From: an uncultured Verrucomicrobiae bacterium
GTDB taxonomy: Bacteria > Chlamydiota > Chlamydiia > Chlamydiales > Rhabdochlamydiaceae
Direction: 5' to 3'
DNA: 64,000 nucleotides
Assembly: GCA_963731265.1 (NCBI GenBank)
Contig: CAVSUE010000001.1
Span: forward strand, 192,001-256,000
The notes beneath the pieces are model-generated. The model made no database searches. It saw nothing but the letters and a program-made list of their open reading frames with translations, and had not been told where the DNA came from. A program made the position numbers and the translations under genes. Positions 20,955-22,184 of the stretch are shown here, piece by piece. The number at the start of each line of letters is the position of its first letter. Position 1 is the stretch's first letter.

Positions 20955-22184
20955 ATGGATTTAGAACGCTCAATACTTAAAATCATCCGCGGGGAAAAAA
21001 GGGCCCCTCTTGTCAAGGCGGGACTGGCGGCCTTAAGCGCAATTTATCGGTCGGTGCTCGCCGCTAGAAATTTTGCCTACGATCGAGGATGGACTCCTTC
21101 TATCCGTTTGCCCGTGCCCGTCATCAGCATCGGGAATATTGTCGTCGGAGGAACGGGAAAAACCCCGCTCGTGCATTTGTTAGCCTCGCAGTTGCAAGAT
21201 CAGGTCTCGCTCGCCATTTTGACTCGGGGCTTTCGTTCGAAGATCGAAAAGTCGGGAAAAAGCCGGCTCATTTCTTCCGGGAACGGACCTCTTTGTTCGC
21301 CGCAAGAATGCGGCGATGAGCCCTATTTTCTTGCGCAAAAGATGAAAGCGGCCATTTGGGTAGGCCCGGACCGGGTTCGGTCAGGACAATTAGCCATTGA
21401 GCAAGGCGCGCAATGTCTTCTTTTGGATGATGGGATGCAGCACCGACGCTTAAAACGAGATTTTGAGATTGTCGTCATTGATGGCCTGGATCCTTTCTCA
21501 AAGGGGCGATTTTTGCCATGGGGCTTGCTTCGCGATTCCCCAAAGCGGCTGCGATCCGCCGATTTGATCGTGTTCACTCACGTGAAAGACCTGGAACATT
21601 ACGATCAATTGCAAAAGCAAATCTCTCCCTATTCCGATGCACCTTCAACCGCCGTTCAAATTGCAGTGGTCAATGAGAGGACAATCGCTCGAAAAGTAGG
21701 CATTTTCTGCGGCATTGGCAAACCCGAACGTTTCGTACAGACTGTGCGTGACTTAAAATGCGAAATTGTCAACACTCTTTTTCTCAAGGATCATGAGCCC
21801 ATACAGAATAGCCGACTCCAGAAATTTGCAAAGGATTGCCGCAGTCAAGGGGCAGAAGCGCTGTTGTGCACGGAAAAAGATTACGTGAAATTATACCCCG
21901 CGGAGGAAGGTTTTGTGAATTTGGACTCTGCGAGGCAAAGCAAAATCCAAGCGAAGCGTTCCGAACGAGCGAGACCATTGCTGGATAGCAAGGGGAGCGA
22001 GAAGGATCGATTTTGCAAAGCCGCAGCCAGTCCAAATTCGCAAAACCTGACGGAGCGCGGTATAGGCCCGGACCCCTCTCTATGCTTGAAGATAGAGTCT
22101 GTGGAAATTCGCTTGCAGATCATCGCAGGCAAAGAGCATTGGGAAGGTCTTGTAATAAAACTTTTGGATAGGATTATCAAATGA
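20955..22184 (+). CDS. lpxK: Tetraacyldisaccharide 4'-kinase carrying a 57-aa in-frame insertion
   Basis: VISIGNIVVGGTGKTP, GDEP, LDDGMQH, LPWG.LRD, FCGIGKP..F, TEKD..K. Confidence 0.95.
   Translation: MDLERSILKIIRGEKRAPLVKAGLAALSAIYRSVLAARNFAYDRGWTPSIRLPVPVISIGNIVVGGTGKTPLVHLLASQLQDQVSLAILTRGFRSKIEKSGKSRLISSGNGPLCSPQECGDEPYFLAQKMKAAIWVGPDRVRSGQLAIEQGAQCLLLDDGMQHRRLKRDFEIVVIDGLDPFSKGRFLPWGLLRDSPKRLRSADLIVFTHVKDLEHYDQLQKQISPYSDAPSTAVQIAVVNERTIARKVGIFCGIGKPERFVQTVRDLKCEIVNTLFLKDHEPIQNSRLQKFAKDCRSQGAEALLCTEKDYVKLYPAEEGFVNLDSARQSKIQAKRSERARPLLDSKGSEKDRFCKAAASPNSQNLTERGIGPDPSLCLKIESVEIRLQIIAGKEHWEGLVIKLLDRIIK
21894..22062. mobile_element. MITE-like element, core A, copy 3, inserted in frame in lpxK
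   Basis: TA on both sides (21892-21893, 22063-22064); arms TACC...AGGTTTTGTGAATTTGGACT / AGTCCAAATTCGCAAAACCT...GGTA; 169+2 = 171 bp. Confidence 0.9.

Follow-up and report, generated by a model that had tools for sequence, protein, structure and literature searches.

In-frame fusion of palindromic repeats with genes is known for the Rickettsia palindromic elements (RPEs), for ERIC, for a 107-bp Correia form in Neisseria, and for repeats of Yersinia and archaea (PMC2229807, PMC10969869). In Rickettsia felis, 85 of 728 RPEs lie in open reading frames (ORFs; PMC1166351), and different RPE groups found at one site have been read as one ancient insertion, with hotspots left possible (PMC3767692). 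RUP repeats have been tied to an IS630 transposase (PMC2229807). We found no report of protein-coding palindromic elements in chlamydiae, in a literature search that covered main texts, few of them in subscription journals; the term "palindrom" is absent from the Rhabdochlamydia genome papers PMC9723776 and PMC6490308, and term look-ups in PMC3372372, PMC3184786, PMC3733652, and PMC9997750 returned nothing relevant.

The locus described here lies in a window, a stretch of 64,000 nucleotides from the genome that we call G000; related genomes are numbered G001, G002, and so on, and X1, X2, etc. are sequencing runs. Close homologues carry the names Rhabdochlamydiaceae or Chlamydiota, which places the host outside the Rickettsiales; we regard it as an environmental chlamydia that belongs to the Rhabdochlamydiaceae or stands close to them. 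A first-pass annotation had proposed that a palindromic mobile element sits in frame in lpxK, framed by TA on both sides and with long inverted arms, and this arrangement of TA, 169 bp, and TA is seen at 21892-22064 (Table 1). The arms of 56 nt each are 73% complementary, and the RNA of the element folds at -77.2 kcal/mol (z = -6.6), which none of 200 shuffles equalled. The addition is exactly 171 bases without a stop codon, as claimed, and encodes 57 residues from four residues after the TEKD motif; that frame is open in 10.9% of 2000 shuffles, and four frames of the element are open, as many as in 10 of the 2000 shuffles. Excision gives the junction that had been predicted from the sequence. 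In the natural empty allele the residue following the site is R instead of G, which means that one base changed next to the duplication.

Table 1. Positions, within the window, of the lpxK locus and of the sister elements.
Feature	Coordinates	Strand	Remark
SIS-domain gene	20284..20895	+	phosphoheptose-isomerase-like, name inferred; upstream of lpxK
lpxK, tetraacyldisaccharide 4'-kinase	20955..22184	+	409 aa including insert; ATG at 20955 fits the start of the homologue model
TEKD motif	21870..21881	+	K308 = ATP-contacting K280 of Aquifex LpxK, by alignment to 4ehw (PMC6286764)
Target TA, left copy of duplication	21892..21893	+	codon positions 2-3 of Leu313; single TA in G003 and run X2
Hairpin left arm, 56 nt	21892..21947	+	inverted-repeat pairing and fold
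169-bp MITE	21894..22062	+	TAC...GTA ends, transposase-free, forward orientation, read in frame
57 added codons, residues 314-370	21894..22064	+	GRAVY -1.05; low-confidence loop between helix 307-313 and strand 379-383
Hairpin right arm	22009..22064	+	inverted-repeat pairing and fold
Right copy of duplicated TA	22063..22064	+
2-oxoacid dehydrogenase E2 gene	22181..23398	+	downstream, 4-base overlap with lpxK stop
Sister element	179..312	-	core 81% over 106 bp, different ends, intergenic
Sister element	16043..16201	-	24-bp core match, own terminal repeats, intergenic
Sister element	29013..29110	-	weak core match; overlaps last 10 bases of ORF 27742-29022

Thirty lpxK loci were fetched and 28 extracted and aligned, the window's own included. 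The insert is absent from 26 of the 27 other sequences, the remaining one carries a different insert, and no orthologue has a homologous segment at this place, so the orthologue alignment bears out the insertion. The nearest relative, G003 (92.8% identical over the aligned locus), has an empty site with a single TA, and a contig of run X2 skips the element and leaves a single TA in the same way. One contig of run X1, 151 nt long, spans the left junction (119 + 32 letters, one mismatch, depth 2.2); this run may be the source sample. None of the run contigs compared spans the right junction, and runs X7 and X8 leave the insertion site uncovered. With filled and empty sites and one TA in the empty allele, the lpxK insertion is real, derived, and accompanied by a TA duplication. 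The insert differs from the family majority at five positions, four of them replacements. Between positions 20900 and 23400, C-to-G and G-to-C changes relative to run X2 are unusually frequent (42 of 176 places), and three of the five private changes of the insert are of this kind.

The host gene is lpxK by its domain matches (PF02606, 279 bits; TIGR00682, 232 bits, cut-off 92), and its ORF extends upstream to a TTG at 20898 (ORF 20898-22184). It is single, with no second copy found in G000, and lpxC, lpxB, and kdtA are present there with open frames, kdtA within a 504-aa open frame (G000:C1:1062861-1063400) whose length makes it a candidate for a further insertion. In Escherichia coli, LpxK is the last absolutely required step of the pathway, and the residues that the same source lists as catalytic correspond to K69, T70, D121, E122, D158, D159, H280, and K308 of the G000 protein, where Walker A/B, the acidic pair, the His base, and the ATP-contacting Lys are thus all present (PMC6286764). 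It keeps 88 of 89 near-invariant columns, where the median homologue misses two, and the near-invariant Pro382 is replaced by Ser. The dN/dS ratio against G003 is 0.115, a value that spans the whole branch rather than merely the time since insertion, and the private changes of the insert may predate the insertion. The G000 branch has 25 synonymous and 11 non-synonymous changes, with 15 further changes unresolved; downstream of the insert, over 39 codons, seven non-synonymous and four synonymous changes separate G000 from G003 (ratio 0.48). An AlphaFold model has a mean pLDDT of 90, falling to 45-73 in the insert, and superimposes on Aquifex LpxK with Z 34.4 and an rmsd of 2.0 over 294 residues (model range 27-405), leaving the core fold intact. 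From the intact catalytic residues, the dN/dS, and the placement of the insert in a predicted loop, LpxK looks alive. The insert starts close to the ATP-contacting lysine, five residues after it, and is followed directly by the strands leading back to the N-terminal domain; the enzyme may plausibly have lost some activity. The overlapping E2 gene would share its mRNA with the hairpin.

BLAST of the element in G000 returned 55 pieces at 25 places, and arm profiles returned 26 clusters, 14 of them fully delimited. A genome-wide look for other in-frame copies, which the first-pass annotation had suggested, found six of the 14 in frame. The hosts are lpxK, priA, genes for RNase R, NusB, and a carbamoyltransferase, and a gene that we infer to be FolC-like; only the lpxK copy lies far from either protein end. 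Another copy breaks a pyrH-like frame. A second exact pair of alleles comprises a filled site in G001 (L035) and an empty one with a single TA in G000, and a G002 copy of the same length, 94% identical to the lpxK element, lies in frame in lptB. Matches to the element turn up in 15 of the 18 other genomes compared within the genus. In a phylum-wide sample, relatives occur in at least 35 of 300 genomes and at least 23 of 165 genera, all in one order; these counts are lower bounds, as at most two candidates were scored per genome. Across 185,579 species genomes, an exact 30-base pattern picks out 60 stretches, whose records bear the labels Chlamydiae, Ca. Rhabdochlamydia, Verrucomicrobia(e), or bacterium; E. 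coli genomes and plasmids gave no sequence match to the element. The added peptide matches no Pfam or NCBIfam family and hence no transposase or intein domain. Given its stem-loop arms, the duplicated TA in filled and empty sites, its shortness, its many copies, and the lack of a transposase, the lpxK element is a non-autonomous DNA transposon (MITE) of environmental chlamydiae.

Three intergenic stretches of the window had been cited as further copies of the core. The core is indeed shared, with local scores of 111, 43, and 38 where shuffles reach at most 30, 26, and 26, but the three have different ends without the TA-TAC termini, which makes them sister elements rather than copies. G000 also holds 34 TATAC-ended hairpin pairs that include several other families, some with the internal core of the lpxK element. 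Short inverted-repeat elements of other families lie at 17840-18094, 3125-3312, and 56594-56626 of the window, and the stretch 17972-18071 recurs inverted at 39321-39420. Elsewhere in the window are the 16S, 23S, and 5S rRNA genes (29404-34524) and, by eye, an array of ~126-bp WD40-like repeats (10607-12266, minus strand) and a 694-aa ORF (18119-20203, minus strand) with aspartate-semialdehyde-dehydrogenase-like and PRPP-synthetase-like parts, perhaps through a lost stop or a real fusion. Two related, repeat-rich, autotransporter-passenger-like genes ~6.25 kb apart (50374-60661) share segments that are 78-100% identical.

The different insert in the orthologue alignment belongs to G012 (L015:1971-2136). 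It is a 166-bp hairpin with GAGACC ends and a 5-bp duplication, lies at the same position of lpxK, and likewise adds 171 bases. It represents a separate young family with 12 loci at 95-100% identity among those returned, none of which is in G000, G001, G002, or G005. Four of the 12 loci are in frame (lpxK and three other ORFs), all in one frame with a GRAVY of -0.93, and six of 11 complete loci show the exact 5-bp duplication. The ends of the G012 peptide may resemble those of RPE-1. At G012:C183, an apparent TA-type element is nested inside a copy of this family. A third case is P0023, known as a protein sequence from one contig, in which a 54-residue insert (GRAVY -0.26) occupies the same column; it is the only internal insert of at least 10 residues among 120 LpxK homologues. 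It has no tblastn match in G000 or in the retrieved loci, and by eye it resembles the lpxK-element family at the peptide ends only. Runs flagged as inserts in P0069 and P0102 are aberrant C-termini instead.

A tree of 33 rows, computed from the portion of the protein that precedes the site, groups G000 with the insert-free G003 and P0023 with the insert-free G006, both at 100/100, and sets G012 apart. With separate branches, two of them with an insert-free sister, the three lpxK inserts appear to be independent. The insert-free gene offers 29 TA sites, 16 of them in the favoured phase, and with so many other sites available, recurrence at one codon by chance seems unlikely. Of the family's 129 genomes, 126 have lpxK, and just one further match breaks off at the insertion site, owing to a frameshift. 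It belongs to G093 (L129), which had been a candidate for a further insert; its lpxK is frameshifted just after TEKD and runs into the downstream E2 gene, which may be an assembly error. G077, G072, G092, and G129 are without an insert. On the sequences compared, one lpxK codon is a recurrent target of at least two unrelated families.

A census in relatives' loci picked by DNA likeness, with genes called by crude ORF rules, comprised 75 clusters, of which 14 were dropped and 61 delimited (two pairs among the latter are local duplicates). Twenty of the 61 lie in frame in long ORFs and all 20 have lengths divisible by three, whereas copies of other lengths are never in frame (0 of 21). For 11 of the 20 in-frame hosts there are NCBIfam matches at 1e-25, e.g., lptB, mtaB, recC, lolD, and copA. 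When proteins were searched with the peptide, 30 of 38 candidates proved to be carriers, 16 with internal and 14 with near-terminal inserts; this set partly overlaps the census. The forward frame at an xTA codon predominates, with 19 of 20 in-frame copies in the census, four of five in a second sample (18 new copies), and six of six in G000, or 29 of 31 overall. For the census plus lpxK, this frame is used in 20 of 21 copies against 7.6 expected from stop-freedom weighted by genic TA supply (p = 2e-8). It is hydrophilic (GRAVY -0.86), in contrast to the two commonly open reverse frames (-0.29 and +0.09). The +T|A forward frame is more hydrophilic still (-1.38); it is open in five of 21 copies and used in none (1.5 expected). 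The sole copy in the hydrophobic reverse frame, L174, lies 21 residues from the start of its ORF and may thus fall in a leader peptide. Intergenic copies between co-oriented genes have a 14:9 orientation by crude gene calls, a skew so slight that a bias at the RNA level or at insertion does not readily account for the frame preference.

Seven in-frame copies of G005 have 11 synonymous and 21 replacement changes, and six of G001 and G013 have three and 10; neither set differs from neutral expectation (p = 0.14 and p = 1.0, respectively). In the G005 copies, the middle is read in another frame through compensating indels. The preference for one hydrophilic frame, together with the neutral drift of the peptide, points to tolerance rather than function, with the peptide as a passenger.

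The TA duplication, together with the RUP precedent, suggests that the element was probably mobilised by an IS630-type transposase (PMC2229807). IS630 matches occur in four of the five genomes searched, and G005, with many family copies, has no PF13358 match. In G001, the genome richest in copies, there is an intact IS630 of ~1.1 kb whose ends begin with TAC after TA, as does a broken IS630 in G013. Both resemble the MITE in the TA duplication and the TAC ends, although only the outer 5-6 bases agree, and they differ from it in encoding a transposase of ~360 aa. The IS630 elements of G000 itself have other ends, and the transposases of G001 and G013 have no tblastn match there. In the genomes searched, we found no transposase with matching long terminal repeats. 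A 945-bp TATAC-ended element around an IS630 gene in G013, considered as a partner, consists of two copies of another, 160-bp MITE inside the transposase gene (L101:1342-2286), beside a reverse-transcriptase-like ORF. A 782-bp TATAC-ended stretch of G000 has, by eye, no transposase-like ORF, and 13 solo arms considered as partner ends are truncated copies or lie at contig ends without a shared interior, bar two neighbouring duplicates. In G001, L114 and 14 further loci are near-identical IS630 copies with TAC ends and a TA duplication, and L111 abuts a family element; in G000 (C1:718456-718735), a family copy is truncated by an IS630 inserted at its end.

We favour, with good confidence, an account in which the MITE inserted at a TA, is read through in frame, and is carried as a tolerated passenger in a working LpxK. 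An IS630-type transposase would probably have moved it in trans into the TA within lpxK, which was duplicated in the process. Since the element plus the duplication is a multiple of three and free of stops, the gene reads through. The insert may have survived for its position, a predicted loop just after the ATP-contacting helix and away from the catalytic residues, and for a frame that yields a hydrophilic, probably disordered peptide, and the 409-residue enzyme most likely still makes lipid IVA. Selection would then screen insertions by their length, openness, frame chemistry, and position and disregard the peptide sequence. It is unlikely that the insertion is instead recent and has crippled lpxK, leaving a young pseudogene or hypomorph that has yet to decay. 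The insert does lie near the ATP-contacting lysine, Pro382Ser and more replacements follow it, and a hairpin of -77 kcal/mol sits within the mRNA. Yet the gene has neither a stop nor a frameshift, it is single, the pathway genes upstream and downstream of its step are intact, and the same site is occupied in two other lineages. Moreover, a dead gene would have about 24 non-synonymous changes on this branch if the five private changes of the insert arose in place (3% neutral drift), and there are 11-14. These private changes may instead come from an unsampled donor.

That the insert has been domesticated, through a role of the peptide or through a hairpin that tunes lpxK and E2 via RNase III as in Neisseria Correia elements, is an explanation to which we give little weight. 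Four of the five private changes alter residues, the other in-frame copies look neutral, the three inserts at the site differ in sequence, and most relatives lack one; this has to be set against a stable hairpin, the repeated occupation of one site, and the processing of Correia-containing transcripts by RNase III (PMC10969869). We consider it barely conceivable that the element is removed from the RNA or the protein, or excised in part of the population, so that an enzyme of normal length results. The hairpin would bring the ends together, but only rRNAs reach the Rfam gathering score in the window, with no intron family, the peptide matches no intein or other Pfam or NCBIfam family, and the strict filters on length and frame are sensible only if the insert is translated. 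An assembly artefact, in which a repeat was misplaced into lpxK, is hardly credible either. The element is a repeat and only its left junction is bridged, at depth 2.2 and by a run that is possibly the source sample; against this, its private bases and its length are unique in G000, the TA duplication and the frame are exact, the left junction is bridged after all, and other assemblies have inserts at the same codon.

Beyond the tolerated passenger in lpxK, one MITE subtype may itself have adapted to the protein interior, as a lineage whose length stays a multiple of three and whose hydrophilic frame stays open; we offer this tentatively, as somewhat less probable than its negation. Copies with TACC ends have lengths that are multiples of three in 30 of 34 cases, at seven different lengths, and this includes 12 of the 16 copies that are not in frame. 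Length and frame would have been kept through internal gains, losses, and compensating frameshifts. In gene-dense intracellular genomes, a divisible length would open access to coding DNA, and unrelated families may have converged on the same solution (171 bases and one hydrophilic frame in the G012 element) and on permissive loops. Against this speaks a 170-bp subtype that spread in G001 without a length divisible by three. If true, the family would have carried out, in nature and repeatedly, an insertion scan of the essential proteins of an order, and it would offer a replicated test of the question, raised by Rickettsia, of hotspots versus ancient origin.

The element is a new family of a known kind. 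This locus contributes an insertion in the interior of a lipid A enzyme encoded by one gene copy, the repeated use of one codon, and a frame filter that can be measured. With it, palindromic repeats that code for protein reach a phylum for which we found no report, and the filled and empty alleles, both young and natural, concern an enzyme open to assay in E. coli. Given three independent insertions at one codon and a strong bias to one frame, it can be tested directly whether an insert survives by virtue of its position and peptide chemistry; for the Rickettsia elements, such effects are hard to separate from shared ancestry. The LpxK loop seems to accept more than 50 residues, and such inserts distort the annotation and alignments of environmental chlamydial proteins.

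The termini of the element may resemble those of ERIC and RUP. Methanocaldococcus, the archaeal host of coding repeats, and Wolbachia are unrelated to the host of the chlamydial element. The Wolbachia palindromic element (WPE) and the archaeal coding repeats are nonetheless similar to it as palindromes translated within proteins (PMC3767692, PMC2229807). TIGR02697 (WPE) had no match in a direct scan or in five genomes, the genome search being one without a working positive control. REP/BIME are palindromes of 20-40 bp tagged GTAG or CGTC (PMC3733652), and the chlamydial unit of 169 bp with a TA duplication is therefore no REP/BIME. ERIC/IRU, Correia/NEMIS, and RUP share with the chlamydial MITE a terminal TA, a target duplication, a long stem-loop, and the lack of a transposase (PMC2229807); in contrast to them, about a third of its sampled copies lie in frame in genes.

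The closest match in behaviour is to RPE-1 to -7, which are likewise hairpin repeats of an obligate intracellular lineage and lie both between genes and in frame in conserved genes (PMC10969869, PMC2229807, PMC3767692, PMC1166351). RPE inserts are in exposed regions, as the predicted loop here may be, and both are probably near-neutral, as reported for gmk. No NCBIfam family matched either DNA-backed lpxK insert at E up to 10, and TIGR01045 (RPE1) is absent from all five genomes in a search run without a Rickettsia positive control. As a mobile palindrome with a filled and an empty site, many copies, and in-frame insertions in housekeeping genes, the element is thus the chlamydial counterpart that the first-pass annotation had proposed, in function and not as an RPE homologue. 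It differs from RPEs in its phylum, in being longer and modular (91-357 added bases), in its clear TA duplication, and in its young filled and empty pairs. Where different RPE groups at one site have been read as one ancient insertion (PMC3767692), the chlamydial inserts at one codon of lpxK appear young and separate in origin.
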